Assembly: GCF_044704955.1 (NCBI RefSeq) | Contig: NC_091990.1 | Coordinates: 176,886,001 to 176,950,000 of the forward strand | DNA length: 64,000 nt | Origin: Pristiophorus japonicus | Taxonomy: Eukaryota | Direction: 5' to 3' | Shown: positions 3,191 to 58,200 of the stretch, in pieces | Position numbering within the stretch: position 1 is the stretch's first letter | Layout of the letters: every line of letters begins with the position of its first letter | The notes under the pieces: generated by a model | What the model saw: only the letters and a program-made list of their open reading frames with translations | What the model was told of the DNA's origin: nothing | The model's database searches: none | Position numbers and translations under genes: made by a program

Positions 3191-3593
3191 TGTTAGTGAA
3201 ATAATTTATTTACCGGAATACGGAGTAAGCTTTGCGAATCATAAACGGTTTATTAAACAGAGCGCTCTGGGAGAGACGCCGTGAACTCCGCAGTCACAGC
3301 AGCCGACTTCTCGTTTAAGCAGAGCGGAGCAGAATCATTTTATACATTGAAGTAAACAAGTATAGAAAATCTCGTTATTGTACAGAAAATCTCATTATTG
3401 ATAAGAAATCACCTGACCCATGAGTCATATCACCGCCTTGTCTGTCTACATGACGTCTGTATATGATTATACGGTTAAATGGTTTATGCTAGAGTGTGAC
3501 CTTATCCCTAGTTGTGCAACTGGGGATTTTCCACACCCCTGCTGCCAAGCTGCCACACATCCGATCTCCCAGCAAGCTCTATTTACTCCAACA
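3191..3593 (-). repeat. ERV-1 3' LTR
   Basis: Direct repeat of 10478-10876, adjacent to the PPT; AATAAA on the minus strand. Confidence 0.95.
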
Positions 3594-3836
3594 GTCCCTC
3601 CTGTGGTTCATGGGGACAGGAGGAAGCTCCCACCCCTCTGAACCATTTTGCCCTGGACCCTTCTGCTGATGTAGTTCCTCTCACCACCTCTTCTGGTGTT
3701 TTGCTTGATGTTCAGCATGTATGGGGTTCGCCAATCCTGCGATCCCCTGCTCTCAGGCTGTGGTGGTCCTACAGCCAAATTCCTTTCTTGTGAGTGTTAG
3801 CAATGTTGGAGTAACGGGATCCGGCTGGATCACTCG

Positions 3837-5135
3837 TTAATATTCAGCGGCTGGAACTATCATTTCTCCCATTCTGGCACAACAGCACTTTACCAGCATA
3901 ACCAAGAGTTACAGCACTATTATGACAATAACAATTGTAACAAATCCCTGCATCAGGGTGGTTCCAATTGATCCCAACCAGCCGGTCGTCCATCCCCACA
4001 AGGAGGAATCCGGCGTTTGTCGAGCCTTTGCTGCCTCTGTTTGGATGTGGTTAGCTAAATCGTGGGTAGTCTCCGAGCTATCTGGGATGTAAGTGCAACA
4101 CTCTCTTCCAATTATCGCACATGTGCCTCCCTTCTCGGCTAAGTTAAAGTCTAGGGCCATCTTGTTTTGTAAAACCATTGTGCGTATTGCCACGGTTTCG
4201 GTGCTTATGCCTTCCAGCGCTTCAGCCGTATCATTGGCAACCTCTTTGAGTAGGGAGGCCAGGAGTTTTATTTCGTTTATTGCTTGGGCAACACCATAGG
4301 AGGGTGCTATGATAGCAAAGAATCGGGCGGTCTCACTTATATCTCTTTTTGCCAAATGAGGGTGTTGTGTCAAAGACCTCAGATGATGTACGTATGGGAC
4401 CACGTAAGCCAGGTAGCAAGACCCGGTCCGCTTCAGTGGTAGCCAGGGGTACGCCTTATGGCCACAGACAAAGTATGTCCCATTATATGGGCTGTATCGT
4501 GTTACCACCTCAGGGGCCCATGCGTCAGTCAGGTTGCTACCATCCGTAAGGTTCTGGAATATTATGCGACTATTATCAGCGTCATCAGTTACGTTAAAAT
4601 ACTGGGAGCCCTTACTACGCCCCATTGTTTGCCCTCCAGTATGGTTTCTAATGAAACAAACCGACCCGTGTGGTTTCCCCTATTCCTGAGGTATTAGTAA
4701 GAACCAGGAACGGGGGCTGACAACTTGTATTGTACTTGGGCTGGTACCATCCTGTGAAGGTTTTTAATGGGTGGCCTGCTTGTTTCCATTCTGCCGCACT
4801 TCCCTTCATACTAACTATATACCTTCCACCCCAGGTGGCTAGACTTCCTTCTCTTGTCTCATCCACGGAGGAGGCGTTCTGGTTGATGTACCATTCCGTC
4901 ACCTCCGACAGGTTGAGCGGTACGGGCCTCAGCGGAATACCTCCGTTAGCGTGAATTGGGACATATGCGCATACCAGCAGTTTGACAAATTTTTAGCTTT
5001 AGCATGCGTTTATGACATATACAAGAACATGTTAACATGTAATTCCCGTTTTCTCCGGAGGGCCGTACCTTTTCCCCATTGGCTAACGCCGAGGAAGCAA
5101 AACACAGATAAAGTGGACAGCACTTTCATTCTCAT
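3837..5135 (-). pseudogene. env: ERV-1 env (gamma-type, ~430 codons; stops and frameshifts)
   Basis: Signal MRMKVLSTLSVFCFLGV, RRKR, CW(V)C, HLAKR cleavage site, LQNKMALDFNLAEKGGTCAIIGRECC, TM anchor, KCCC tail. Confidence 0.93.
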
Positions 5136-5245
5136 TGTTACTTATTACTCTACACTTTAACAATCTCCCAAACCTGCGTGTAACTTGTTTATAGAAGATG
5201 TGTCAGGGCCTTCCTGTCAATGGTAATAACGAGGTTTGTTAAATA

Positions 5246-8200
5246 TTAGGGCCCATATACTTTAAGCTGGGACCAATGTTTCCATTGTCCCTTTCCCTTA
5301 ATGTCCACACAAGCACAAGTATCACTGCTAAGCATGACCTCATAGGGTCCTATCCATTTCGGGGCGAAGCCCGGTTTTCCCGGTATGATCTTGACCATTA
5401 CCCTTGTCTCCGCCGGGGGTACTTCAGGGAGAGTGGTCAACTTAAGGTTATCATCTCTTTCCTTTTGGTCAGAACGAACCGTTTTCCTCATATCTGCCAA
5501 TTGCTGACTCAATTCGATGAGGTAGGTTCGCATTCTATTTTTCAATGGGCCCACCTCCCGTGGCGATGCCCTCGGGCAGCAACATTGCCCGTCCGGTCAT
5601 CAGTTCATACGGGATAAATCCGGTAGTGCGATTGGGGGTCGCTCTTAATTTCATTAGGATTATAGGCAACACATCTACCTAGGTTTGTCCAGTGTCCCAG
5701 ATGGCCTTCCCCAGAGCCATTCGTTCTACCATACCCGAGCTCTGAGGATGGTAGGGAATGTGGAGCCTTTGTCTGATTCCCAATAATTTGCAGACCATTT
5801 TCATTACTGATCCTGTAAAGTGTGTGCCCAGGTCCGAATCTATTTGCAATGGTACCCCCCATCACGGAATTACCTCCTCCGCCAAGATTTGTGCCACGGT
5901 AGTTGCCGTGCAGTTTCTCGTTGGAAAGGCTTCTACCCAACGGGTGAATTGGTCTATCACCACCAAGCAGTATTGTTTTCCCCGGGAAGCTGGGAAGGGC
6001 CCAGTGAAGCCTATCTGGACGTTATCCCAAGGTCCCCGCGGGCGTGGCTGATGTGCCATCCGGACCTGTACCGGTTTTCCACTATTGTGCTGTGCGCATA
6101 TAATACATCTATGGTAATATCGGCTGACGTCCGGCCTCAATCCCGGCCACCACCAGTCTTTCATAATCGCAATTGCCATTGGGACTCGTGCGGTATGGCT
6201 CGCGCCATGGTGTAATTCCATTAACATCTGCCTTATGCAGGACGGTGCTACTACTCTCCCGTCTTTCCTCCACACATGGTCCGCTTCCATTTTTGCTCCC
6301 TTCTGTGCCCGTTCCCCTTTCTCGGCGGCGGGGATGTCCTTTATACATCCTTTATTTATCCTTTCCTGTTCTACTCTTGCGGCCGCCACTTGTTCCACCC
6401 GTTCCGACTCTAAGGCCGTCTGTGCGGCCTTGTCAGCCGCTTGGTTACCCTCCTGTTCTTTCGTCTTAACCTTTTGGTGTGCCTTAATCTTTATAACTGC
6501 TGCCTGTGTCGGTTTACTTGAGGCTTCTAATAGGTTCCTAACTCTTACTTGATGCTTAACGGGCTCTCCCCCTGTGGTGATAAAGCCTCTGCGTCCCCAT
6601 GCGGTCATATAGTCATGCACTACCCCAAATGCATACCGACTGTCCATATAAATGTTTACGGTTTTTCCTTCTGCTTCAATGCTTCCGTGAGGGCCACCAA
6701 TTCGGCTACCTGAGCCGACAGGCTCCCATTTATTCATCCCGACCTCTCAACGTCTAAATGCTCGTTCACCACAACCCACCCAGTCCGCGGGGCCCCATCT
6801 ATATATGTATGTGATCCATCTACGTAGAAGGTGAGCTGCAGGTCCTCCAACGGTACATCCTTCAGCCTTCCCATGTTCACTTCCTCATCCACTTCCTCAC
6901 ATTCATGGGGACTACCTTCCCCCATCATCCCCTCTGCTGGATTCTCCCCCGTGTCTCTGATTATCTTGACTGACTGATCGGCGGGTAGTAACACTGCCTC
7001 CCACCTTGCCCGGCGCATGTTAGAGACGGACCTCAGCCTTCCAGTGTTTAACATTTCCACAATGGTATGTTTGGTATGTAGGATAATATCTCCTGTCATT
7101 ACCACTGGTTCACTGACATTTAGTGCCCATGCAGCACAGTCCAAGATGGCTACACATCGCGATAGTCCCTCTTCTACCAGCGACATTTTTGTAGAGTAAT
7201 ATGCCACCGGCCTCTTTCTATCCCCATGATCTTGTGCCACTACTGCTGTGTAAAATCCTGCATGATTGTTACAGAATATATGGAATCCCAGTCCGGGTGC
7301 TGTAATGAGGGCCCGTTTTAACTCCATATAGGCTTCCTGTTGTTTCGGGACCCATTCTACCTCCGACTTGGCCAGAGGGGAGCCCCTCACTAATGCCTGT
7401 ATAGGTTCGACTATTTCTGCAAAATTAGGAATAAAGCTCCGGCTGTAATTAAAAAGACCCAGGACCTTCCTCACCCCCCTTACGGAGACCGGACGAGACA
7501 TTCGTTCTATGGCACTCCGCCGGTCTCCGGGCATGGTTCGTTGTCCCTGCGACAACTGTTGTCCGAGGTACGTGACCTGGGCCAACCTTATCTGTGTTTT
7601 CTGTGGATTTCCCTTAAACCCGCCCTCCAGCAGTGCTTGCAATACCACGACCAGCGCAGTGGCGTGCCCCCTTTCATCCTCTGAAGCGATTAGGAGGTCG
7701 TTTACATATTGTAAAACCGTACTGTGGTACGGTGTCAGGTCTACTTTTTCTAATAATGCGCTCATGGCCCGGTGGAAGATGGCTGGACTATTGTGAAATC
7801 CCTGTGGGAGTCTTGTCCAGTTATATTGCTTGGCCCCGACTGTGAAGGCGAATTTGTCCTGAGGCGTCCAGTCGAGGGGGATAGACCAGAATCCATTTGC
7901 TATATCTAAAACCGTAAAAACCTTATGAGTGGGGCTGAGCCGGTTAAATATTGTGGCTGGGTTGGCCACAATTGGGTGTACCTTCGAGGTGACTTTATTT
8001 AGGGCCGTGTAGTCGATCGTAAGGCGGTAAGACCCGTCTGGTTTAGACACTGGCCACACAGGGGAATTAGTAGTGGTTTCAGCGTGTCTCACTATTCCTC
8101 TTTTCTGCAGCTCCTTAACTATTTCTTTAACCGCCTGTGCTGCTTCCGTTTTAATGGGGTACTGTCTGTGGGCGGTGTGGGCTGGTCCCTCGACTGTAAT

Positions 8201-8721
8201 GGCCGGCATAACCACCTCTCCGCATCTTGCTTGTCCTTGGCCCAAACTGCAGACAAGGCACTACATACCGCTCGATAGATTCCCTTAATCTTTGTCCAAT
8301 CTTGTGCCAAAACTTGCACACTTCCTACCTTGGCCGTATGGCGGGTATATTTAGTGAGATGTGTCCTGGCCCCATTTGCTTCCGGCCAGTGCAATTTAGA
8401 CTGTCGGGCATCTATCAAGAGGTTGAGGTCCCTCATGAGGTCGAGCCCCATGATGGTACCCTCGTTATTTTTACACACATAGAACTGTGCAGGTATCATT
8501 TTCCCATCTATTTCTACCACCTGCACTGTGCTTTTGTACGCGTGGACTCGTTCTCCTCCTAAGCCCACTTTCACTATTTTATCCTTGGTTAACGGGAGGG
8601 GTATGTTGGTAAAAGAGACCGAGCATCCTGTGTCCACTAACATTTCACACTGTCTGCCTCCTATTAGTGCAGACACATACATTCGTTCATCTGACCCTCC
8701 TTCCCCGGGGACCGCAGACCG
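5246..8721 (-). pseudogene. pol: ERV-1 pro-pol (PR, RT, RNase H, IN with GPY/F), frameshifted
   Basis: LVDTGCS; LPQGFHNSP; YVND (mutated YVDD); YVDGS and YMDSRYAF; HHCC; PKWIGPYEV. Confidence 0.95.
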
Positions 8722-10083
8722 TCAATAGCTGCTCCCTGACTTCTTGAGGAATTCCAGGTATTTGCGGTACTCGTTGCTACCTATTTGTTGTTCGAGAGTC
8801 CCAGGGGCCGATGTTTTACTGGCCTCGGCCTGTCCCGCCCAACATTTCTCCGCTAGGTGTCCCACCTTTCCACAATTCTTGCAGACAGGTTTCGGGACTT
8901 TACAGGCCTTTGCCATGTGCCCGGCCTTACCACAATTAAAACAGGTTCGGGGTCGGGTACCCTGCGCCTGTCCTGTCGCCCCTCTCTCTTGTTTTGTAGT
9001 TGGGCCCCCATGTTCTCGCTTTGCCTCTTGGGCATCTACGTTACGAGCCCACCATACTACATCATCATAGGTGGCGGCGACAACCACCCCCATTTTCAAA
9101 ACCTTTTGGTGTTCGGATGATAATCCCTCCTTAAACATTTGGACAAAGGCTGGGTCATTCATTGCGGCATTTGGCTGTCCTGATGATTTCTCATAGGCGG
9201 CGAACAGTCGTTCCTCGTATTCTGACACCCCCTCTCCCTTTTTATCTGTTTGTATGTCATAATTTTTCCCCAATTAGTGGGAGCTGCCCCGAGGACGGTT
9301 TGTACGGAGGCCTTAAAGGCAGCAAAAGGTGCCCGTTGGGCAGCTCTGTCTGACGCCAGGACAACATTCGAGGCCCAAGTCCCGTCCCGATAATTTGCAT
9401 TAGCCTGGGCTCTCCACCGATCCTTCGGGCACTTGGCCCTGACCAGTTGATCGATGTCCCTGGGATGTAAGTCATGTACATCCCAGGTCTCGTCAAGGGC
9501 CTTCCAAAATTCTATGTTGTTACTCCTTGGTTTCAGAGACCCAAGGTCCTTCAGGATGGTTTGTTTCTCTAATGGCGTAAACGCGGCATATTTTGCAGTT
9601 GGGTTTGCCGCAGTTCCCCCCCCCCCCCCCTTCTCACTGGAGCTGCTTTTATTTCCGTGACGCCGTCACCCCTTCACCATTCTGACCCTCCATTTCGGGA
9701 AGGATCCGACGCCACGGGATATATTGGCGCATATGGGGCCGGTATTTCTCGTCCGAACATTTCTCCTGATGCACATGACCTATTTGGTGTACTGGTTATA
9801 TTTTCCAATTGTTTCTCTAATTCTCTGATTCTTTTTGTTTTATATCTATCGTTTTCTTCTGCTATTTCCTGTAACCGTATATATGCTTGGGCCAACATTA
9901 TCCCCGCCTTTTTTGTTCTTTGTTTTTCTGTTTTTCCCACCAGTCCCATTGCGCCGGCAGCAGTTTGGACGGGTCCCACCCGTCCCGATTCATTTTCTCT
10001 CTCACTGTCTTTCTTTCCTCCATAAACCATCTGGTCAAGGATCCTGATGGCCCCGAACTAAATGTAGAGTCCTTACCTGCCAT
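8722..10083 (-). pseudogene. gag: ERV-1 gag with two CCHC zinc knuckles, frameshifted
   Basis: Starts MAGKDST; contains [14 protein letters not shown] and [14 protein letters not shown]; ends in TGA in frame with the protease. Confidence 0.88.
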
Positions 10084-10456
10084 CGTAGTACGTCTACACT
10101 TATGTCCTAGTGGGTCCCGCTTATCCAGCTGGGACGCCTACTATAATCCGTTGTCAGAGGTGCCTCACTTGTAAACCCACACTTTCCGGGTCTCTCAGTG
10201 GTGTCTCACTTGCGACTAATACGTGGCATATCACGGACCTATTTAACGTTTAGTCTTCTGTAAATAAGAAACAATAGTTACGGAACCGCGGGTCGCGACC
10301 TATATAAGCCGTTTAAGTCACAAACCCACTCCCTTAGTTCGTTGGATCCGTCCGAGTGACCTATTCACCAGTCCCACGGTGTCAATCTATGGACGGTCAG
10401 AAATGTGACTCCTCGCCCGGTACCGCGGGCCTAGGTAGAGAGAGTCCTCGACACGG

Positions 10457-10474
10457 ATCCTGCCGACTATGCCA
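10457..10474 (-). other. ERV-1 primer binding site, tRNA-Ser(AGA/TGA)
   Basis: TGGCATAGTCGGCAGGAT, a 17/18 match to the complement of the vertebrate tRNA-Ser 3' end as I recall it. Confidence 0.88.
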
Positions 10475-10477
10475 AAT

Positions 10478-10876
10478 TGTTAGTGAAATAATTTATTCAC
10501 CGGAATACGGAGTGAGTTTTGTGAATCATAAATGGTTTATTAAACAGAGCGTTCTGGGAGCGACGCCGTGGACTCCGCAATCACAGCAGCCAACTTCTCG
10601 TTTAAGCAGAGCGGAGCAGAATCATTTATACATTGAAGTAAACAAGTATAGAAAATCTCGTTATTGTACAGAAAATCTTATTATTGATAAGAAATCACCT
10701 GACCCATGAGTCATATCATCGCCTTTGTCTACATGACGTCTGTATATGATTATACGGTTAAATGGTTTATGCTAGAGTGTGACCTCATCCCTAGTTGTGC
10801 AACTGGGGATTTTCCACCCCCCTGCTGCCAAGCTGCCACCCGTCCGATTTCCCAGCAAGCTCTATTTACTCCAACA
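10478..10876 (-). repeat. ERV-1 5' LTR
   Basis: Direct repeat of 3191-3593, followed on the minus strand by the PBS. Confidence 0.95.
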
Positions 10877-37479: not shown

Positions 37480-39775
37480 GGCCGTCAGGGTAGCAGCCCC
37501 CTAGGGAGCTCCCCTGCTAAACAGATCCTCGACAACTTTTCACCCTCGACCTCCCCCCTCCCACTGTCTAAACTTCCCAAGCCCCAGCCCTAGCCCTAAT
37601 CTACCCTAATAGGGGGTCTTAAACACTTAAATACCCACTCTAACCCCAACCGCGCGAATCCCAAAGTTTGGGCCTACCTCAGGCCTCCCGCCACACCGTA
37701 CATTGGCAACTCGGCGCAACCTGGGCCTCCTGGCTGGACCTCCTGCGGTGACCCGACGCGACCTGGGCCTCCCGGCTGGACCTCCTGCAGCGACTCGACG
37801 TGACCTGGGCCTCCAGGCTGGAGCTCCTGCGACGACTGGACGACTCGGCGTGACCTGGGCCTCCCGGCTGGATCTCCTGCAGCAACTCGACATGACCTGG
37901 GTCTTCCGGCTGGACCTCCTGCGGCAACTCGGCATGACCTGGGCCTCCTGGCTGGACTTGGCTATCGGCCCCCCCCCCGCCCCCTCCCATCTGCACCTCT
38001 CCTTCCCCACTGATGGCCTGGTCTCCTCTCCTCCTCCTCCAGCACGTGGTGAGTACAATGGCTGTGACCCCCCTGTCCCCCCATTCTGAACCCCGGTGCC
38101 TGCCCCCAACCAAGCCTTGGACCACTTACCATCAACAGCGCTACCCAGTGCCGTGCCTGCGGCCAACATCTCGCCATAGGCAACTAGGCCTATACAGCAG
38201 TGCCTGGTCTCCAGTAGTCTTGGACTCCCTTGCCACTGGACCAAGACCTTGCTCAGCTTAGCCCATGTGGTGGCCGGTGTGCAACGACCACCCCATGTTA
38301 AAAGAAATCACGCACAGGCATCTTCCACATCTCTAACATGAAGTTTGGGACCTGGGACGTCAGGACCCTCATGGACAACCCCAACAGTGACAGACCGGAA
38401 CGCCGCACCGCCATAATTGCCCGGGAACTTAGACGCTTTGATATCGACATCGCCGCCCTAAGCGAGACCCGGTGGGCAGGGGAAGGCCAATTCAAGGAAC
38501 AAGGTGGAAGTTACACCTTCTTCTGGAAAGGGAAACCAGAGGCAGAACGCCGCCTCCATGGAGTCGGCTTCGCCACCAAAAACGAGCTGGTCAACCGCCT
38601 CAAAGACTCCCCCTGTGGGGCTAATGAATGCCTCATGACTCTTCGACTCACCCTATCCTGGAACCAGTGCGCCACAGTCATCAGTGCTTATGCTCCAACA
38701 CTCGATGCAACAGATGAGGCCAAAGAGGGTTTTTACTCCAACCTCGAAAAATCCCTAACCTGCGTCCCCACAGGCGACAAACTGATCCTCCTCGGCGACT
38801 TCAATGCCAGAGTCGGCAAGGACACAGACCTCCGGGGAGGTGTGATTGGCAGAGAGGGGGTAGGGAAAGCCAACTCCAACAGTACCCTACTCCTGACAAA
38901 ATGTCTAGAGCATGAACTTGTCATCACCAACACCTTGCTCCGACAGAGGGACAAATACAAGGCATCGTGGCAACACCCTCGCTCCAAACACTGGCACCTG
39001 CTCGACTATGTCATCGTCCGAGCCAGGGATCTCAAGGATGTACGCATCACCCGTGCCATGACAGGCGCTGATGACTGCTGGACGGATCAGCGCCTAATCC
39101 GATCCATCATTGACATCAACGTAGCCCCAAAGCAAAGGGGGCAGCAGAAGCAGTGTCGCAAAAAAGTCAATGCCAGGCCACTTAAGGACCCAGCTAAGAG
39201 AGCCCTTTACAGTCAGCGCCTCACAGCTAACCTGGCGTGCCTTGATGACCCCGAGACGCAGAATGCCCAAAGTGCTTGGTCTGTCCTCCAGGCCTCCATA
39301 ACCAGTGCCTGCAAAGAAACATTCAGTCACTCAACCAGGAAACACCAGGACTGGTTTGATGGAATGATCAGGAGATTCAAGCGCAGGGCATTTCTGAGCC
39401 TTAAACAGCAACCCAACTCGGGAGCAGCAAAGCAGCATTACAGACGGCTAAAGGCTAAGGTCCAACAAAAAACCTGGGACCTAAAGAACAGGTAGTGGAT
39501 GGAGAAAGCACAGGAGATACAGCAGCTGGCCGACAGCCATAATATGCGAGGATTCTTCATCACAGTCAAGGCCATCTACAGTCCAAACACCCAAGGCCCC
39601 ACCCTGCTGCTGGCCAAGAACAGGGAAATACTCATCAAGGACACTGAGGCAGTCAGGGCCCACTGGAAGGAGCACTTTGAAGATCTCCTCAATCGAGATT
39701 CTACCTTTGACTCGAGTGTTCTTGACTCCAATCCGCAGCATGCTACCCGCCACCACCTCAGTGCAACCCCGACAC
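37480..39775 (+). mobile_element. RTE LINE 5' half (long GC-rich 5' region and APE endonuclease ORF 38338-39495); 3' half deleted
   Basis: GTWDVRTL, ALSETR, ISAYAPT, LLGDFNARVG, LDYVIVR. Confidence 0.9.
37705..37960 (+). repeat. 42-bp GC-rich tandem repeat (6 copies) upstream of the RTE ORF
   Basis: cctgggcctcc recurs at 37720, 37762, 37804, 37854, 37896 and 37938. Confidence 0.88.
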
Positions 39776-44599: not shown

Positions 44600-45022
44600 T
44601 CGAGTTGAGTCACTAAGGCAGTGAGGAGAGCTATGCAGCGCGAGCCGGTTCAGAAGGGCGACGGCAGTGAAGAGGGCGACTGGATTGGATGTCACCATAA
44701 CCCAGGTCAGTGATTGGAGCATGGGCAGGTACAGCAGGAGCGGCGATGTCGGGGCGAAGGAGCAGCAAGAGATTGCAGAGCGATGTGATCGGGGCCCAGG
44801 AGAGGCGAGGGTCCAGGGGCAGCACGGGCCAGCCCACATTGCGATATGTGTGCGCACTAGGTCCGTGCAGCAGAGCTGGTCTCCAGTCATCTTGGTTAAT
44901 CCTTGCCACTGGACCAAGACCTAGCTCTGTCAAGCCCGTGTGGTGGCTGATGTGCGACGGGCATCGCACGGTAAAAAAAATTCATGCACAGGCATCTTCC
45001 ACCCTTCAACATGTAGTTCGGA
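44600..45022 (+). mobile_element. Bipartite RTE derivative split by ERV-2 (tail at 52651-52750)
   Basis: Joining 45022 to 52651 restores the sequence seen in the other copies. Confidence 0.8.
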
Positions 45023-45370
45023 TGATAGAGAATTCAAACAGGCTGCATTTAAACAGACTGTGAAAATTCACAGACCCCCAAGTCAAGGCTGCTACATGCA
45101 ATTCAGCATGTTGCATTAAGTCATCAATCAACTTGACATTTTAGGACTCATGGGTAGCGAGCCAATTAAAAGGTTAAAAGACTATTAATTGAGCCAATAA
45201 GGTCAAAGAAGGCGAGTTCTTTTCTGTAAATTGATCCAGGTATAAGTACATTTTGACCATGTGGTCCCAGAAGGTTAAAGCCAAGAACTTGTTACTGCTG
45301 TCTGCCAAAAATAAAGCAGTTAAAACTACAATCGGAGTTCATATTTCATTGGAAATTAAGAGATCTAACA
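45023..45370 (+). repeat. ERV-2 5' LTR
   Basis: TG..CA with CCAAT boxes, TATAA and AATAAA; direct repeat of 52283-52645. Confidence 0.95.
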
Positions 45371-45374
45371 ATTT

Positions 45375-45392
45375 TGGCGTCACGAACACGAT
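45375..45392 (+). other. ERV-2 primer binding site, tRNA-Ser(CGA)
   Basis: TGGCGTCACGAACACGAT, a 17/18 match to the complement of tRNA-Ser(CGA) as I recall it. Confidence 0.82.
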
Positions 45393-45645
45393 CGCTGAGG
45401 AAAGAAACTGAATTTTGGACATCGGACCTACATACTAAGGTAAGGACACCTCTTTTTTAAAAGTCCTCGGTCAAAAGTCTAAATTCGCCTCTCCTTCTAC
45501 GCGATTCCGAAAGCCTCCGGTTTGCGAACCCTCCGGTTGGTAGTCGGCTCGAGGTCCCATAGACGTCTAAACTTTGGCGGTGTGTTAGTTAATTAATCAC
45601 TGACCTATTGATCGGACTCGAGACCCCAGTAAACAAATCAGTATT

Positions 45646-47182
45646 ATGGCAGCAGGAGATAAGAGCAAAGAATTGCCTACAACTGTTAAAGGTGGGCAGG
45701 CACCACCTGAAGTTTCGCTAGATTTAATTCTCGAACAGTTGAAAGAATACATAGAGCAACAATTCAACTTATCTAAAACCTGTATTAAGATCGAACAAAA
45801 GTACGGAACCTCCAAAGGACAATGGTCCTTGGACGAGATTAAAAGGGTCTGGGGAAAAACGACGCGTATGAAAAATAAAGAGCGAACTAGATGGTCCCTA
45901 GCGGTTATGGACCAGATTCGAAAGCGGAATGAAATTATAATGCGTTCCCAACATGATCGAGAACTGACCAGTACAAAGGATCAATTGCAAGCAGTTTGTG
46001 CGCAACTGCGACAGAAAAAGCTTGAACTTGAAAAGCTGGAAGCGGAAGTTAAAGATCTTAAAGGTGAAATTAAAGAATGGAAAAAATCATTAGGTCAAGA
46101 GACAGTAATAGGAAAAGAAAAATGTATTGATCAATTCCCAGGGTACCCATGTTTGGATAAATTAAAAGCGCAAACCCGAAGACACGACCGAGGAATAGAT
46201 ACGAATTCTGAATCCTCTGACGATACAGGGTCGGAGGATGATGAATTAGGGGTGCGCTTTGCCCCGTTTAAAAAAAGATGAGTTGTAGTCAAATCAAAAG
46301 AGACTGCGGATGAGGGCGGAATCAAAAAAACAAAGAAAAGGGTGTACGAAAAATACTTAGTTCATGATCCGGCAGACCCAGAGAAAATTGATAAATGGTC
46401 CAAGGAATTGCCCAATCCAAAGAAAGGGGGAGTAAAAACGTGGGACCAATTGGGCCGCTTAAGAAATATATATCAACTTCATCCCTGGGACGGAGTGCAA
46501 ATTTTGACCATAATGGTGCCAAAAACACAGGGAAGAAAATTGCACGACAAGGTAGAAGAAGCTTTGGGGCAGGATGAGCAAGATTTAGATGCAGGATGGG
46601 AGGCGATTAAAGCTAAGACAGACTGGGGAAAAATTGCAGCCTGCTATCAGAAAGGAACAGGAGGTCCTGGAGTATGACGAGCAGTTTAGATGCACGTGGC
46701 TAGAACATTCGGGTATGAATAATACGGATGAGGAAATGGATGAACAAGTGTTTGGACCCCTGAAAGCAGCTTTCGTGGCAGGTCTAAAGCCAGAACTGTC
46801 CAAAATGCTGAAGGTAGTGTTACCGGACTGGGAAGGTAGAGGAACTACCTTTGCAGCATTGGTGGATCGATGTAACCAAATAGATCGGGATATGGGAGCT
46901 AAAGTCCGAGCTGTACAGGCTATGGGATGGAAATCCCAGGATCCCGATAAACAGTTATTTGGAAAATTACCCGGAAAATGTCATTATTGTGGGAAAGAAG
47001 GTCACTGGGCCAAGACGTGCAGGGCAAAACAGAAAGGTCGTGGCTGGGGAAGAGGACGCCGCCAGGGATACAATGCAGCCAACAAGCCAGGCTTGTCACA
47101 AGATAACGATCTCATAGAAGCATTTAAGCAACTGACAATACATCAACAGAAGGAGTTACTTGGGATAGCAAAAAACGATTAG
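45646..47182 (+). pseudogene. gag: ERV-2 gag (coiled-coil region, single CCHC knuckle), disrupted
   Basis: ORFs 45646-46281, 46342-46677 and 46589-47182; CHYCGKEGHWAKTC. Confidence 0.88.
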
Positions 47183-47256
47183 AGCCCACCCTGGCCTCCC
47201 TCCTCGCACTAATACAACAAAGGGGAGATGGGCTATATATAACTGTGAGGGTGGGC
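47170..47256 (+). promoter_or_regulatory. Putative -1 ribosomal frameshift signal (A AAA AAC + downstream stem)
   Basis: Heptamer at 47170-47176 in the gag frame; 7-nt spacer; GCCCACCCT (47184-92) complementary to AGGGTGGGC (47248-56); the -1 frame is open into LLDTGA. Confidence 0.78.
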
Positions 47257-50200
47257 GATAAGGATGTGGACTGTCTTTTAGACACAGGGGCAGAATTAAC
47301 ATGCTTACCCCTACAATATGGAGACTTTTTGCCGTTGGATGGTAGGGCACGTACAGCCTATGGAGTTGGGGACCATAAAATGGAAATTAAAAGGACAACA
47401 CCGGTACTTATAGGGCTGGGTCCACATGAACTAACCACGCCAGTCTGGATAGGTCCAGTAGATCAACCCCTTTTGGGAATGGACGTTCTAATCCAAGTAG
47501 ATTCATCATTGCATTTCGAGGATGGTCGGGTGACATGGTCAATTAGAACTTTGAAGAAAGAAGAATTGAAGGAACACCCGATATGGGCTAAAGATAAGAA
47601 CGATTGTGGCGTACTCCAAATGAAGCCTGCGTCATTTACAGGGACCAAGCCTCCATGCACTAAACAGTATCCCATCAGTCCAACTGCCATCGCGGAAATC
47701 TTACCAGTTATTCAGCAATTGGAGAAAAAAGGGGTGCTTATTAAAACGCATAGCTCCTCCAATAGCCCCGTGTGGCCGGTACAGAAATCTAATGAGTCTT
47801 GGCGTTTGACTGTCGATTATAGGAAAGCTAACCAGTGTATTGATCAAAAAGCTCCTTTGGTCGCAGATCCCTCCATTTTTAATGCCCTCAAACCGGAACA
47901 TAAATATTTTTCGGTTATAGATATGGCCAACGGATTTTGGTCGGTGCCTCTGGCACCGGAGGTTCGACAGTGGTTTGCTTTCACGGTCCAAGGACAACAG
48001 TATACTTGGACCCGGTTACCGCAGGGTTTCCACAACAGCCCTACGGTATTCCACATGGCTTTACAAAGCCATTTGCGAGAATTACCTCCCCTGTCATCCA
48101 GTCATCCAATATGTAGACAATATCCTGCTAGCTTCAAACACGGAAGAACAGCATGAACCAGATTTACGAGCTTTGCTGGATCACCTTCGGCTGAAAGGAC
48201 ATAAAGCCAGCATCGACAAAGCACAAATATCCCAAGAAGAGGTTGTATACCTGGGACAAAAGATTTCACAAGGAAAGAGAGAACTTACCCAGGATAGAAC
48301 TGCAGCCATTCGGGCTGCTAAAAAACCCACCACTATTCAGGAACTAAGGTCTTTTTTGGGATTGTGTAACTTTAACAGAAATTGGATTCACTCCTTCACA
48401 CAGCTTGCTCAGCCATTGAATGATATTTTAAAGGGGAAACGTGCCTCTAAAGAAGCCATCACCCTCACAAAAAAACAGCAAGAGGCCTTCCTGAGTTTGA
48501 AAAAGGCTTTGTGTTCGGCACCGGCTCTGGGAATCCCCGACAGTGGTAAGCCATTTACCCTGTTTGTACATGAGAAAGAAGGATATATGACAGCTATACT
48601 GACACAAGCACATGGGGATCGGCAAAGGCCTATTGGCTATTATTCGGCAAAACTGGATGCGGTAGCCCTCGGATGGGGAAGTTGCCTAAGGGCCATGGAA
48701 GCTACATGTCGAGCGGTAATGACCACTGCGGGTCTAGTCCTCGACCAAAAGCTGATTGTCAAGTGTCCCCACACCGTACACGCTTTGCTGTCTATGAATA
48801 GAATGTCTCAGGTGACAGCAGCAAGATGGACCCGATGGACAGCAGTTTTGGAAGCTCCTAATCTCCATATCGTCCGGGCCAGCCCGGTTAATCCCGCAAC
48901 TATGCTCCCGATGTCAGAATCGAGGGAGCAAGAGGGGGGAGAATGTGAAGAGCATGACTGCATGGAGATTTTAAAAGAAACAGAAGAAGCAGCCTTAGCA
49001 GCAGAGGAGCCTCTGCACAACCCAGACCTCATCCTGTTTACAGATGGTTCCTCCTTTGTTGACAATGGTACCAGAAAAGCAGGATGGACAGTTACAACCT
49101 TATATGAGGTAGTGGCAAAAGGATGTTTACCCTCAGGAACGTCAGCACAACAGGCCGAGTTACGGGCCCTGTCAGAAGCATGTCGAATAGCAGAAGGACA
49201 GACAGCTAATGTCTACACAGATTCGCGTTATGCTTTTGGAGTCGCTCATGACTTTGGTATGTTATGGCGGAAAAGAGGATTCCTCACTGCTGCTGGTACA
49301 CCTATCCGAAATGGAAAAGAAGTCCGAGACTTACTGGAGGCCATACAATTACCTCAGGAAGTGTCCATCCTGAAGTGTAAGGCCCATACCAAAGGAAAAT
49401 ACCACAGAAGCACAGGGAAATGCCCTAGCCGACCAGGCAGCTAAAGATACCGCCTCACAGGGCGTTCCTCCAGAAGAACCAACACAGATGTGCAGATTGA
49501 AAGCATTCAGGACTCTGACACGAGACCTTCAAACAATGCAAGGCGAGTGCTCCCGAGAGTAAAAATGGACATGGATTGAGGCAGGAATTAAGCTATGCGA
49601 AGATGGTGTCTGGAGACAAAGAGTTACCGACAAGCCAGTCGCGCCACAAGCGCTTATGCCTTTTTTAGCCCAACAGATCCACTCGTGGGGACACTTGTCC
49701 TCACAACAGATGACGGCATGGTTCCAGAAAAGCTGGTGGGGTCGGGGATTTAAAAAACATGCCCAGCTGGTAACAGACCGCTGTGTGGTCTGCCAGAAAA
49801 ATAATTCTGGACCCATCACGGTAATGCCCCAATTGAGGCATGCCCCTGCATCTGCAGGTTGATTATATATCTCTTCCTTCATGCCAAAGATACACTAACA
49901 TTCTTGTCATGGTCGACAGATTCTCTAGATGGGTAGAAGCTGTCCCAACTAAAAGAGCCACAGCTAATCACACTGCAAAGGTCTTGTGTAAGGATTACAT
50001 TCCCCGATGGGGAGTCCCGAGTAGTATTGACTCAGATCAGGGAACACACTTCACAGGTGCTGTCTGCCAAGAAGTCTGTAGGTTACTGAACATTACGTGG
50101 GATTTACACTGTCCTTATCATCCACAATCATCAGGACAAGTAGAGCGAATGAATCGAACTCTGAAACAACGGCTTGCCAAATATCACCAAGAAGGAACAC

Positions 50201-50630
50201 CATGGCCCCAGGCACTACCAATAGTGCTATGCAGCATTAGGGCAACCCCGAACAGAACTACAGGTCTAAGCCCATTTGAAATTATAACAGGAAGACTCAT
50301 GTCGCTGCCAGGAACGATCGATTTACGGAAAGCTGATGTTCACTTAATGAGTGACACTCTGTTATCATACTGTCAGAACCTAATGCTATTAGTTCTGTTT
50401 CCCGACAAGTATCGGCAGCTTGGGGTAATCCACCCGAAGGAGGACACGACATCATCCCGGGAGTCTGGGTGTATGTGAAAAAGTTGCATAAAGAACCTTT
50501 AGGTGCCAAATGGGAGGGACCTTATCAAGTGTTATTGACCACCCAGGCAGCTGTTAAAGTCCAAGGAAAGAAAGCCTGGATCCACGCTTCACACGTTAAA
50601 CGAGCACCCGTAACTGAAGCTGAAATCTAA
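47170..50630 (+). pseudogene. pol: ERV-2 pro-pol, frameshifted
   Basis: LLDTGAE; LPQGFHNSP; YVDN; FTDGSS; YTDSRYAF; LQVDY, DSDQGTHFT, GQVERMN; WEGPYQV. Confidence 0.95.
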
Positions 50631-50654
50631 TAAGGACAATTACTTTTTGCGAAA

Positions 50655-52007
50655 ATGTATAAATTTACTGTATTATTGATTGTAGGTATTATAGGCATAG
50701 GCCTACTTCTTACTAGCTGACCTTCTGCACCAAAGGGAAATAGTAGGGTAGCAAGGGAATTACATGTAAGTACCTTTTTATATATGTCATACATTTATGC
50801 CAAACAAGGTAACATTTCTAGTTGTTGGGTGTGTGCGCATATTCCTATTCACTCAAAGGGAGGGATTCCCTTGAGGCCAGTTCCCTTGAATATCTCAGAA
50901 ATGGCTGAGTGGATAATTAATCAAAATAAAACAGGCAATGCGTTTCAGGATGCGGAAAATTGGGCACGTAAATGGAAGTCAGCAGGTTACAATCTGACTA
51001 CCTTTGAAGGGGGATACCAATCGTGCTATAATAATTCCAAACGGCCCCCATTTTTTGTTATCACTAATACAACGGGAATAGGAAGACCGGGGGAATCAGT
51101 CTGTCTGATTAGAAACATCAAAGGAGGCCAAAATATGGGGTATAGTAACTGCTCCCGGAATTATAATATAATCAAGCCACGGAACCGTCCAAACTGGGCC
51201 GATGTGGGAATTTTTAACGTAACGGGGATTCTGAATAAAACAGATGGAAAAGCCTGGACAGGCCCCGGAGTGTTGCTGACAAAGAAACAGCTAACATTCA
51301 TTGCATATAATGGCACCTATTGGGTGTGTGGCCACAAGGCCTACCCTTGGCTGCCCCAGAATTGGATGGGATCCTGCTATTTAGCCTACATTGTGTCTTA
51401 TATGTATCATATAAAGTCACTGTCGGAACATTGACACCGTCCTAAGAGAGCTATCACAGAAACAGAGAGGTTCTTTGCCATTCTGATCTCTGGGTATGGG
51501 ACCGCCAAACTGGCAAGGGAATCCATTAACATGGCATCCGTTGTGGAACGAGTAGCCAAAGATACCTCAGAGGCCCTCGTTAAAATCAATGCAGAAATGG
51601 TAGCAATCCGCACAGTAGCCCTACAGAATAGACTGGCCCTTGATTACATCCTGGCTGAAAAGGGAGATACTTGCACCCTACTCGGAACTGAGTGTTGCAC
51701 ATATATCCCAGATAGCTCCGAAGAAATTACCCACTTAGCGGAGCATATCCAAAAGGAGGTAGAAAAACTTGAGCAACCCCCATCATTCACTTTGTGGAGT
51801 GGAGCCACTGAATGGCTAGGTTCAATAGGAACTTCATTGGTGGAAGGTTTAATTCTATTTGTTGTAATTGTTTTACTTTTATATTGTTTGTTTATGTTGA
51901 TTAAATGTTGTTGCGACCAGGCGGCTGTAGCTGCTGTCCCGCAGGTGAGACACCTTGCAGGTCCCAGCAGACCGTCTGTACGTGGCACAGGAGTATGTTA
52001 TGCTTAA
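50655..52007 (+). pseudogene. env: ERV-2 env (450 codons, two in-frame TGA, no frameshift)
   Basis: Signal MYKFTVLLIVGIIGIGLLL, RVAR, CWVC, RPKR, LQNRLALDYILAEKGDTCTLLGTECC, TM anchor. Confidence 0.95.
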
Positions 52008-52282
52008 GGGAAGGTTGTTTACTGGTTGAACTAAGATATTGATTTGGATTAAATTGGAATAAGGTTAATTAACCTACTAAAACCAGACTTCCATTGTGGC
52101 CACGATGGAATTCGGGTTGGTGTAAATTTGTGTGGAAGCTACTAGTCCGGACATGTGGCGAAACACATCAACAAATTTTGGAAGGAAACTCTATTAACAT
52201 GTATGAAATTATTTGGTAGAATGTTTAACCAGTGATACCTGATGTTTTATGATTCAGTTTGTGAAAGAATCAAAGGGGGGAT

Positions 52283-52645
52283 TGATAGAGAATTCAAACA
52301 GACTGCATTTAGACAGACTGTGAAAATTCACAGACCCCCAAGTCAAGGCTGCTACATGCAGTTCAGCATGTTGCATTAAGTCATCAATCAACTTGACATT
52401 TTAGGACCCATGGGTAGCGAGCCAATTAAAGGTTAAAAGACTATTAATTGAGCCAATAAGGTCAAAGAAGGCGAATTCTTTTCTGTAAATTGATCCAGGT
52501 ATAAGTACAGCCATTTTGACCATGTGGTCCCAGAAGGACAAAGACCTGGGTTAAAGCCAAGAACTTGTTACTGCTGTCTGCCAAAAATAAAGCAGTTAAA
52601 ACTACAATCGGAGTCGTATTTCATTGGAAATTAAGAGATCTAACA
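52283..52645 (+). repeat. ERV-2 3' LTR
   Basis: Follows the PPT; direct repeat of the 5' LTR. Confidence 0.95.
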
Positions 52646-52814
52646 TTGGAACCTGGAATATTGGGTCTTTCATTGAAACACCTGTGAACTCTTCCCTTTT
52701 TGGTGTGGAAGCAAGTCATCCTCAATACGAGAGATTGCCTATGATGATGACCCAATAAACCTATTAACAATCCATATACAATGCCCCATCTATGGGTGGA
52801 GGAGGGAGAATGCG

Positions 52815-53220
52815 CTTGGGTAAGGCACTTCAGCTGGGGGAGGGAAGTACTTGGACTGGGGTAAGGTACTTCGGCTGGGGGAGGCATGCATTTGGACTGG
52901 GGTAAGGCACTTTGAATGGGGTAAGGCACTTTGGCTAGGGAGGGAAATACTTGGACTGGGGTAAAGCAATTTGGCTGGGTGGCGCATACACTTGGACTGG
53001 GGTAAGGCACTTTAGCTATGGAGGGAAGTACTTGGACTGGGATAAGGCACTTTGGCTGGGTGGGGCATACACTTGGACTGGGGTAAGGCACTTTGGCTGG
53101 GGAAGGGATGCCCTTGGATTGGGGTAAGGCACTTTGGCTGAGTGGGGCATACACTTGGACTGGTGTAAGGCACTTTGACTGGAGGACGGATGCACTTGGA
53201 CTGGGGTAAGGCACTTTGCC
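52815..53220 (+). repeat. G-rich minisatellite, ~41-bp unit made of two ~20-bp subunits, ~10 copies
   Basis: Repeated cttggactggggtaaggcactttggctggg. Confidence 0.9.
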
Positions 53221-53806
53221 TGGCCCTTGCTGGCTTGTGGGGAGCTCTGTCCTCTGTTGCTTCCTGAAGTCAAAGTGGATCGAGTTACAATTTGGAAAGT
53301 CAATGAGTCCTTGGGATGGGCCGATCCAGTGATATATTCCTGTGAAACTTCAGGGTGTGGTTTATCCTCCAAGGGGACCAATCAGAAACAAGGGGTGGAG
53401 CCTGTTGGCCATTTTTGCGGTACAAATAAGCGCTTCCTTTTGAAAAATTAGAACGGGAAACTTTTTTGGAGTACTCAGCCCCCTAAAAACAAGCATAACT
53501 CTTGAAATACACCAAAAAACGGCATTGGGGAAAATTGAGCCCATTGGTGGGGATGGATTCATCAAACAAGATGTAATTTTCTAAAACTTAATTTTTTCCA
53601 CACAAAACTAGATATACCACCAGCATCACTTACAAGAACCGACAACAAACACACACACGAGTTCTAAGATTCCTTCAAATATACTTTTCCTGAGAAAGAT
53701 TCTGGAGGGGAAACTTTTAACTTGTCAGGTCTCCATGTTGTCAGCCCAAATTTTTCAAGTGTGTAATTGTCACCGGAGAAGTCAGACGACCGCGATGTTT
53801 CTTTAC

Positions 53807-55258: not shown

Positions 55259-58200
55259 TGTCATGTATTCAACTGTCATTGTAACCCATGTATAAACTGA
55301 CCTAAGTTGTATACCGTGAGAATATTGACCACTAGGTGGTGAATTTGTGGGAGACACTCCTAACCTGGATTTTCAGGTATAAAAGAGGAAGCTCCACCCA
55401 CCTTCATCACTTCAGTGCTGGCTAATAAAGGTTACTGGTCACAGAGTGACCTTCTCTCAAGTATGGGCCTCGTGTGCATTTATACTGTATAGTAAGGATA
55501 TATTATTGGCGACGAGAAACTGGGATTTAAACCACGCGAGCATGGCCACTAGCAGCACAGATGAGAGGTACTGTGTTGGTGATGAATAGGACGATTTTAT
55601 TGAGAGACTACAGCAAAGTTTCGTCACCAAGGAATGGTTGGGACAGGATTCGGCCGACAAACGCAGGGCTCACCTCCTGATGGTTTGTGGATCCAGGACG
55701 CACTCCCTGATGAAGGACCTTCTAGCGCCAGAGAAGCCGGCGGACAAAACTTTTGAAGAGCTCAGAAAGTTGATCGACGAATAATTTAAACCGGCTAGCA
55801 GCATGCACATGGCGAGACACCGGTTTTACACACACCGGCAGCGAGAAGGGCAAAGCATTCCAGACTTCGTGGCAGACCTCCAGCGACTGGCGAGCCTATG
55901 TAAGTTCCCAGATGCATGCAGAGTGGAGATGCTGAGAGACTTTTTTATTGAGGGCATCGGGCACGCTGGGAATTTCAGGAAACTGATTGAGACCAAAGAC
56001 TTGACACTGGAAACGGTGGCTTTGATGGCCCAGACATTTATCTCAGGGGAGGCAGAGACCAGAATGATGTTTGACAAAAATCTTGGCTTAAATGCAGCAA
56101 ATGGACAGGGAGTCAACATTGTTAACACGGCACACAGTTCTCCAGGCAGGCAGGGGCAATTGGACATGCCCGAGCATGTAGTCGAACCCAAAGGGGGAAT
56201 TCAACAGAGACAATGGCTAGCTGAACGGCGATTCATGCCATCGCAGGGGACAATGCGGCCAATAATGGGGCCATCAACACCTGTCAATGGTGTGCTTAAG
56301 GACAGTTACAGAGACAGTCAGAGCCGATCGACTGGTAATGGACCTTTTGTTTCCAACAACGGCTCATGTTGGAGGTGTGGAGGCAAACACCCAGCCAGAG
56401 CTTGCAGGTATCAGCAATTTACCTGCAGAAACTGCAACGTCAGCGGTCACTTGGCACGTATGTGCAGGAAGCCTGCAGCCAGGTTGATGTACGAGGAGGA
56501 CGGGTCCGATTTAAGCCCGACGATGCCAAATGAACACTGGGGGAAATCGCTGGAAGCTGAAGTTCAGCAAGTTCATGTGGAGCACATATATAGTTCATAC
56601 ACCAGGACGCCACCGATAATGATGAAAGTGCTCCTCAATGGTATCCCAGTATCAATGGAGCTAGACACAGGGGCCAGCCAGTCCCTGATGAGTATCAAAC
56701 AGATCGACAAGTTGTGGGCGTCCAAGGCCAGGAGGTCAAAATTATTGCCGATTGACGCACAGCTACGGACATATACAAAGGAGATCATTCCGGTGCTAGG
56801 CAACGCTACGGTAGTCGTGACCCACAAAGATTCGGAGAACAGATTGTCACTCTGGATTGTCCCAGGGGACGGTCCCGAACTACTGGGGAGGAGTTGGCTT
56901 GCTGTCATGAACTGGAAATGGGGCGATGTCAATGCAATTTCCTCTATGGAGTGAGTATCATGCTCACAGGTCCAGGACAAATTTGACTCATTGGGCCCAA
57001 GTTTCCACATAATTCGCGCCGGATTTTTAGGAACAACTGGTGGAGAACGGACTATTTTAGAAATCGCAATTCTCCACATTTTTTTTTCTGCAGTTCTAGT
57101 CAGGTAGAACAGTTCTAGTTTAGAACAGAATTTTTTCTTCAAAAGGGGGCGTGTCCGGCCACTGACGCCTGATTTGAAAGTTTCCACAGTGAAAATGTAC
57201 TCCAAACTAAAGTAGAATGGAGCCAGTGAAGATTTTTGTAGAACTGAAAAAACCTGTTCTACAAGTTAAAAAATCAGGCGCAGGTTACAAATTAGGCGTC
57301 CAGAACGAGGTGGGGGGGAGGGGCGGGGGAGAAAAGGGAACTCATTAAATTCGACAATAAATCCTTATTTATACTTCTACAAATATTATACAAATAAATC
57401 CAACCTGAATAAACATTTATAAGCCAAGAAAAGATTAAATAAACCATCTTCCTACCTGTGTGAAAGTGCTTCAGCCAGGGAGAATTCTGCAGCCGTTNNN
57501 NNNNNNNNNNNNNNNNNNNNNNNNNNNNNNNNNNNNNNNNNNNNNNNNNNNNNNNNNNNNNNNNNNNNNNNNNNNNNNNNNNNNNNNNNNNNNNNNNNNN
57601 NNNNNNNNNNNNNNNNNNNNNNNNNNNNNNNNNNNNNNNNNNNNNNNNNNNNNNNNNNNNNNNNGAGAGGGGGAGGAGAGAGGGGGAGAGAGGGGGAGGG
57701 AGGAGGAGGGAGGGAGAGAGAGAGAGAGAGAGCGGGGGGGGCGTCGGGTCGGGGAACAGGAGCGCGGGTCGGGTCAGTCGGGAGGGGGGGGAGCGGGTCT
57801 CGGGTCGGGTCGGGGCTGGGGGGCGGGGAGCGGGGGTCGGGTCTCGGGTCAGGGCGGTGGGGGGAGCGGGTGTCGGGTCTCGTGGCGGGGGGGGGAGCGG
57901 GTGTCGGGTCGGGGCGGGGGGAACGGGTGTCGGGTCGGGGGGGGGAGTGGATGTCGGGTCTCGGGGCGGGGGGGGGGAGCGGGTGTCGGGTCTCGGGTCG
58001 GGGCGGGGTGGGGGGAGCGGGTGTCGGGTCGGGTCTGGTCGGCGGTGGGGGGGGCGGAAGCGAGTGTCGGGTCTGGTCGGGCGGGAAGCAGGAGCTGGCC
58101 GTGGGAGGAGCCTCATTCACGCAGCCCCAGTGAGGCCATTGGGCCAGGGCTAGGGGCTGCGTGCTTCGGGCCCCTCCCACACAGTTCGGCGCCTGGAGCT

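Follow-up and report, generated by a model that had tools for sequence, protein, structure and literature searches.

How does an endogenous retrovirus (ERV) whose protease lies in a different frame from its gag come to express Pol? The question is raised by ERV-2, a full-length provirus at 45023-52645 on the plus strand of a 64,000-nt stretch of the shark Pristiophorus japonicus (contig NC_091990.1, positions 176,886,001 to 176,950,000; hereafter the window). An original prediction, made from the letters of this DNA alone, proposed -1 ribosomal frameshifting between gag and pro, despite a gamma-type env and a reverse transcriptase (RT) outside class II. Because the ERV-2 copy is broken at other places, a post-insertion indel is a real rival to such a signal. 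Our analysis suggests, with a probability of roughly 90%, that the junction is a programmed -1 ribosomal frameshift signal for making Gag-Pro-Pol. The trait is shared across a clade of ERVs from sharks and bony fishes, in which the RT falls outside both class I and class II.

The gag/pro junction of ERV-2

The gag open reading frame (ORF; 46589-47182) ends GCA AAA AAC GAT TAG, placing the slippery heptamer A AAA AAC (47170-47176) in X XXY YYZ phase one codon ahead of the gag stop. A 7-nt spacer (47177-47183), which includes the stop TAG (47180-47182), separates the heptamer from a 9-bp stem formed by 47184-47192 with 47248-47256. The protease and the first part of RT occupy an ORF at 47128-48156 (Pfam gag-asp_proteas/RVP) that is -1 relative to gag, is open throughout and has its first Met only after the catalytic DTGA (47281-47292). 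Readthrough of the TAG in the gag frame would meet a TAA nine codons on. The phased heptamer, the stem 7 nt downstream and the -1 frame open into the protease had each been proposed originally, and all three stand.

The base stem is predicted with pair probabilities of 0.74-1.0 and is extended by two inner stems (47193-47197/47230-47234 and 47200-47205/47222-47227). The predicted stimulatory stem-loop (47184-47256) comprises the 9-bp base stem, a 13-nt 3' bulge, 5-bp and 6-bp upper stems and a 16-nt loop. The fold of 47183-47260 reaches -34 kcal/mol (z -3.9), and none of 200 shuffles was equally stable. This segment has the lowest minimum free energy among 314 windows of 78 nt over 45643-52000, and of the folds downstream of all 25 heptamer-like sites within the internal region, it is the most stable (-34.0, the next being -26.6). 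An alternative pairing that the original prediction had also proposed (AGCCCA/TGGGCT, CTCCC/GGGAG) can form at -13.6 kcal/mol, but it was rejected as the main fold, with a probability of about zero in the nested ensemble. In principle, this hairpin might still serve as the first stem of a pseudoknot with 47201-47208/47244-47251. Together with the relatives described below, the junction shows the features of a canonical -1 signal: an in-phase heptamer, a predicted stable structure within the 5-9 nt range, a -1 ORF without a start, and conservation of both offset and heptamer.

Under the established rules of -1 frameshifting, which are the basis for the slip, for its rate and for the stem's role, most ribosomes would terminate at the TAG at 47180 and release Gag. 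A minority would pause at the stem that starts 7 nt past A AAA AAC, where tRNA-Lys and tRNA-Asn would shift back one base simultaneously. Translation would then proceed through protease, RT, RNase H and integrase to yield one Gag-Pro-Pol precursor. Since the relatives hold protease to integrase in a single ORF, one shift rather than two would suffice, a lentivirus-like single-shift '-1/0' plan.

Pol lineage and class assignment

The RT of ERV-2 is neither class I nor class II, and falls with a grade of spuma, ERV-L and snakehead retrovirus (SnRV)-like elements. In two RT trees, the ERV-2 piece and 9-11 fish Pols (Coilia, Alosa, Astyanax, Lepisosteus and further records) form one clade (support 100 in the first, 100/99 in the second). 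This clade is nested in a group with the spuma references, an ERV-L-like row, SnRV-like rows and ERV-1, a second provirus in the window (support 96 and 99/99). The second tree, from which 16 rows were removed and to which one was added relative to the first, gives this group 24 rows, separated at 99/99 from gamma/epsilon and beta/delta, with the order within the group not settled. Both trees were built without alpha, lenti, SnRV or gypsy outgroup rows; our search of viral contigs recovered no SnRV locus. Forcing the clade together with beta/delta was rejected by the approximately unbiased test (p-AU 0.011), which bears out the claim of a non-class-II RT. Against RT structures, the clade Pol P0001 matched p80 best (458 bits), followed by the foamy-type Pr125Pol (224 bits), with HIV-type and other Gag-Pol at no more than 112 bits. 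The RT had been described as YVDD/ANGFWS-type; YVDD is indeed found in the relatives, whereas this copy reads YVDN.

The genus labels of our reference loci are assumed from length and motifs. With these labels, a control of junction frames over 29 reference loci separated cleanly, with gag and pro in frame 0 in 12/12 gamma/epsilon-type loci and in the -1 relation with a heptamer in 17/17 beta/delta-type loci; not counted were the spuma loci, two partial loci, five that lacked a pol call, L052 and L056, whose calls were unclear, and L014. L014, a gamma-type locus from the viral contigs, has its zinc knuckle and protease in different frames, probably reflecting a defective genome or an error in the sequence.

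Further characters can be compared with those of the described classes. Class II elements carry two zinc knuckles and a 6-bp target duplication (PMC4299795, Table 1); ERV-2 has one knuckle, a 5-bp duplication and an RT outside beta/delta. It is set apart from class I by the 99/99 branch and by a gag and pro that are not in one frame, and a gamma-type env is present. With the SnRV-like/clade Huo grade it shares the RT grouping but not an in-frame gag-pol with readthrough, and with the ERV3/ERV4 elements of Chong et al. (2014) it shares the 5-bp duplication but not a knuckle-less Gag, since zf-CCHC is present. Its pol lacks a start of its own, a zinc knuckle is present and the clade stands apart from the spuma references, which together separate it from spumaviruses. 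As the RT is not class I, the fitting comparison is therefore with three elements for which readthrough has been described, SnRV, XtERV-S and Ovex1.

The supported group that the clade shares with spumaviruses, whose pol starts separately (PMC8278194), introduces the best surviving alternative to a frameshift signal. Expression could be foamy-like, with a real -1 offset, Pol translated from a spliced mRNA or from its own start, and a heptamer that is incidental. We consider this improbable. The -1 frame offers no Met ahead of the protease active site, and the called starts of the relatives are scattered from 2 to 51 residues ahead of DTG. Moreover, splicing would leave unexplained both the conserved KN, GN or LN ends of Gag (see below) and a stem placed 7 nt past the heptamer.

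Conservation of the offset and of the Gag end

On the indel alternative, the ancestral gag and pol were in frame and joined by stop readthrough, and a one-base change within the A run now mimics a slippery site. Elsewhere in ERV-2 the frame changes at least five times and two stops occur, Jern et al. (2005) report 17% apparent -1 junctions in gamma ERVs through decay, and SnRV, the swim bladder sarcoma virus of Atlantic salmon (SSSV), the zebrafish ERV ZFERV, XtERV-S and Ovex1 are all in-frame. The original prediction had named a family consensus with gag and pro in the same frame as the outcome that would identify an indel.

Logan contigs from four runs were aligned on 46560-47460, giving 5957 (X1), 11 (X5), 0 (X9) and 1 (X12). 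Their indel table holds two rows, at 46610 and 46658, the latter being a known break in gag, and none is listed at 47160-47260. An X5 contig (record 17) covers 47131-47460 with 6 differing letters and 0 gaps. In a diverged X12 contig (record 9), the length between a match ending at 47031 and a match starting at 47198 is unchanged, and the frame offset is therefore identical. X1 may be the window's own sample, and in its short contigs indels appear mostly as loose ends. Within the stem, the listed differences at 47197 (X1, X5) and 47233 (X12) preserve the predicted pairs; the 5' arm is unaligned in X12. At 47197, an inner-stem position, nearly all other X1 and X5 contigs differ in letter and keep the predicted pair.

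The offset extends well beyond close copies. In the Heterodontus gene model P0023, which is 71% identical across half of the protease-RT query, the homologue of the -1-frame peptide of ERV-2 (containing VTWCSKKL) continues directly into the protease. A more distant family, represented by P0020 (an intact 1166-aa Pro-Pol in a cluster of 3937 members), is 44% identical to the ERV-2 protease-RT, and its Gags (P0052) end in QDQEKN followed by the stop. A script that asks which DNA could encode both the last 11 gag codons of P0052 and the pro-frame peptides of this family returned a single fit, in the -1 relation, for P0100 and P0021, and no fit for P0106 (two of the three proteins tried gave a fit). 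The overlap of P0052 with P0100/P0021 forces A AAA AAY, then a stop. The distance from junction to catalytic DTG is 36 residues in this family and 35 in ERV-2.

The Gag termini extend the comparison further. A Gag profile search gave 279 proteins at E 0.001, and among the 150 listed, 60 have a zinc knuckle; a word-index search using the gag C-terminal piece gave no matches, although the profile search did recover relatives, and an Atlas search with P0052 returned generic Gag clusters only. Gags were ranked by similarity to the ERV-2 Gag with the tail excluded, and P0361 was added. Among the matches listed, the end [GKL]N or [GKL]Nx occurs in 10 of the 14 closest rows (sharks, chimaera, cyprinids, pike) and in 4/47 of those remaining, three of them from the P0052 family, over a background of 2.6% from the same tails. 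Carriers include Pimephales and Onychostoma (QGN, then stop), Esox (EGN), Scyliorhinus (KNY and KNC) and Callorhinchus (KNA), and further carriers end PGN, QGN, SGNQ, LLN or EKN. These dipeptides correspond to heptamers of known types: KN to A AAA AAC, GN to G GGA AAC and LN to U UUA AAC. On a Gag tree built without the tails, which is itself weakly supported, the end label clusters, with 6 changes against 12.7 when shuffled (0/500), and the Callorhinchus and Scyliorhinus Gags lie nearest to that of ERV-2. These Gags connect directly to the Pol clade in three cases, namely the window, the P0020 family and Heterodontus; for the other Gags the connection is presumed from similarity.

With the offset and slippery site found family- and clade-wide, the indel reading fails, barring an artefact of gene calling in the relatives' overlap, and we regard it as very unlikely: no junction indel is listed in the three runs that cover or bridge the junction, the same offset recurs in Heterodontus and in a 44%-identical family, and the KN/GN/LN Gag ends are conserved. 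The family-level comparison set out in the original prediction thus favors a genuine offset. Least probable of all is transcriptional slippage on the A6 run, alone or mixed with a ribosomal slip, restoring the Pol frame in some RNAs: an A run does occupy the site in the window and in three other families (KN ends), but seven families with GN or LN ends have no long homopolymer, and the asparagine codon and spaced stem are hallmarks of tRNA slippage.

Several points weigh against the programmed frameshift. Frameshifting itself is something we infer from sequence, and G GGA AAC and U UUA AAC are deduced from protein ends, with stem conservation seen in close copies only. The z-score of the junction (25 shuffles) is -3.3, outside the top eight windows (best -4.4), such that z alone is not distinctive. 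The contig results hold among the rows listed, which leave out 18 substitution and 66 loose-end rows; those loose ends that are listed lie off the junction. A minor contig of X1 (record 7), over 47169-47274, shows 2 gap letters. Within the P0020 family, P0010 has gag and pro in one ORF, switching to the -1-frame peptide about eight codons ahead of the heptamer, as an indel copy would. Lastly, 4 of the 14 closest listed Gag rows (P0159, P0142, P0232 and P0157) lack the signature, although P0157 has a sibling, P0361, that carries GN before the stop, and P0159 is a run-on model.

The two Boreogadus Gags among these, P0142 and P0232, retain the C-terminal helix and lack a KN/GN/LN end, as decayed copies or another junction type might. 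Two further proteins (P0259, P0145) are ORFs that join the start or most of gag to later pol, suggesting internally deleted clade members. Searches for the DNA of distant relatives gave three epsilon-type loci in one search of viral contigs and none in another, six weak matches (19-28%) in metagenome contigs and none in genome contigs, and a motif scan gave one unrelated locus. Three elephant-shark proviruses (Han 2015) were considered as clade members and set aside: supplement 1 holds no AAAAAAC and one GGGAAAC, in the gag of another lineage, and line breaks could mask a match. They therefore seem to lie outside the clade.

The provirus, its neighbours and known retroviruses

ERV-2 is flanked by 5-bp target-site duplication copies (45018-45022 and 52646-52650, one mismatch) and bounded by a 5' long terminal repeat (LTR) at 45023-45370 and a 3' LTR at 52283-52645, with 6 mismatches over 346 aligned columns and a further 19 columns of gaps between them. 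A primer-binding site (45375-45392) follows directly after the 5' LTR, and a polypurine tract (52263-52282) precedes the 3' LTR. The primer-binding site is presumably of the tRNA-Ser type. Pfam and motif matches assign gag (45646-47182) a coiled-coil N-terminal part, a capsid and a single CCHC zinc knuckle in the nucleocapsid (46973-47023; Pfam zf-CCHC). The remainder of pol, comprising RT, tether, RNase H and integrase, spans 48101-50627 by domain and motif matches. Pieces of a gamma-type env follow at 50721-52007 (Pfam TLV_coat), with CxxC, an RPKR furin site, LQNRLALD resembling the immunosuppressive domain, and CX6CC. All of these but the duplication copies lie on the plus strand. This copy is dead, with at least five frame changes outside the junction and two stops: gag has a stop (46279-46281) and shifts frame near 46655-46660, pol changes frame near 48075-48101, 49395-49417, 49811-49849 and 50385-50409, and env has a stop at 51432-51434.

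The original prediction set the frameshift against the gamma-type env, a contrast that does not hold. The ERV-2 env transmembrane subunit (TM) also matches -1-junction references (L010, L048, L051, L057 and L058), and the env of the in-frame ERV-1 (3909-4679, minus) is 46-51% identical to that of ERV-2. Because frameshifting references share this TM type and in-frame ERV-1 has a related env, a gamma-type env is unsurprising at such a junction. The surprise is the Pol lineage. The original interpretation is otherwise supported, with the emphasis now moved from env to Pol and from a single copy to a clade. Where compared, the Pol pieces of the two proviruses share about 33% identity, and env was probably exchanged between the two lineages, judging from these sequences.

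ERV-1 (3191-10876, minus; LTRs 3191-3593 and 10478-10876, 94.8% identical) is itself broken, and is a natural contrast to the ERV-2 junction within the same window. It belongs to the same non-class-I/II grade but to another RT subclade, with P0028, P0029 and P0030. Its gag, with two knuckle-like motifs, and its pro share one frame, with TGA-CGG between them at 8724-8719, which we take to be a readthrough-type context. The primer-binding sites of ERV-1 (about 10458-10475, minus) and ERV-2 presumably correspond to serine tRNAs of different isoacceptors. Elsewhere in the window, a single ORF at 55785-56954 has a zinc knuckle and protease in frame; considered as an ERV, it was rejected, and looks instead like the gag-pro of a gypsy-type LTR retrotransposon. 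The regions 52774-53271, 37667-37998 and 57734-58081 hold tandem arrays of units of about 41-42 nt and a G-rich low-complexity array, and several long interspersed nuclear element fragments are also present.

These data point to a known mechanism in a lineage that would not be expected to use it. It is probable, though less so than the junction signal itself, that a still-invading lineage of chimaeras, sharks, gar and teleosts makes Pol through one -1 frameshift, has swapped heptamers (A AAA AAC, G GGA AAC, U UUA AAC) without losing the mechanism, was previously undescribed, and marks at least one switch of recoding mode beyond the textbook split. The additional switch would follow because the clade stands apart from class II and the neighbours described so far rely on readthrough or splicing. 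If so, frameshifting arose twice, or is ancestral with repeated origins of readthrough. Translational strategy serves as a 'global' marker of retroviral groups, a rule that a frameshifting basal fish clade would violate, and the clade would supply a second contrast for studying how readthrough and frameshift signals interconvert. Its junctions would represent natural -1 signals from cold-blooded hosts, assayable as short reporter cassettes, and a Gag ending in KN, GN or LN would be a protein-level marker of the clade. For annotation, the data caution against reading every -1 gag/pol offset in a fish ERV as decay.

Members of the lineage seem to have been catalogued before. The RT rows of Mamb.ERVi.1, Oste.ERVi.1 and Eluc.ERVi.2, which have identical LTRs, show the clade motifs by eye and therefore look like members already on record (Wang and Han 2023, PMC10435555). 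The junction is not described in that paper: its main text contains neither 'frameshift' nor 'readthrough', and 'frameshift' is likewise absent from the supplements covered, which exclude file 14 and one large PDF. No frameshifting non-class-II fish ERV appears in the consulted portions of PMC5210030, PMC8922424, PMC4299795, PMC8672886, PMC4977317, PMC5009743, PMC7947760, PMC4422223 or bioRxiv 2024.07.05.601823. More broadly, we found no description of such a junction in the open-licence PMC and bioRxiv literature, a scope that leaves out Repbase and most subscription journals.

Among described retroviruses, readthrough is used by gamma and epsilon viruses, SnRV, SSSV and ZFERV, and frameshifting by alpha, beta, delta and lentiviruses (PMC13517186, PMC1224870, PMC3835772). 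The gag-pro site is A AAA AAC in mouse mammary tumour virus (MMTV), intracisternal A particle (IAP), bovine leukaemia virus (BLV) and human T-lymphotropic virus (HTLV); it is G GGA AAC in Mason-Pfizer monkey virus/simian retrovirus (MPMV/SRV), Jaagsiekte sheep retrovirus (JSRV) and human endogenous retrovirus K (HERV-K) (PMC3835772). The ERV-2 junction resembles the MMTV, IAP, BLV, HTLV, MPMV, JSRV and HERV-K sites in heptamer type, 7-nt spacer and GC-rich downstream stem, and resembles class II sites in a stop 0-1 codon past the heptamer (as in L021 and L035). It differs in that class II elements have two knuckles and a second, pro-pol shift, whereas ERV-2 has one knuckle and one shift, an RT rejected from their clade, and a predicted stimulator that is a 73-nt bulged stem-loop rather than a compact pseudoknot.

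Closer in Pol are the fish elements, and the coiled-coil Gag of ERV-2 is presumably a further likeness to SnRV. SnRV, SnRV-like and clade Huo ERVs share with ERV-2 a fish host, a non-class-I/II RT with NGFWS and YVDD, and one knuckle (PMC13517186, PMC1224870, PMC8922424, PMC4977317, PMC4422223); SnRV differs in that its gag and pol share a frame, with UAG-GGC. XtERV-S (Yedavalli et al. 2021, PMC8278194) likewise has a class III-like pol, a gamma-type TM and a serine primer-binding site, and shares with Ovex1 of chicken (PMC2717909) the class III-like pol and 5-bp target duplication. Both differ from ERV-2 in an in-frame stop between gag and pol and in the absence of a zinc knuckle, and XtERV-S also in the presence of a dUTPase.

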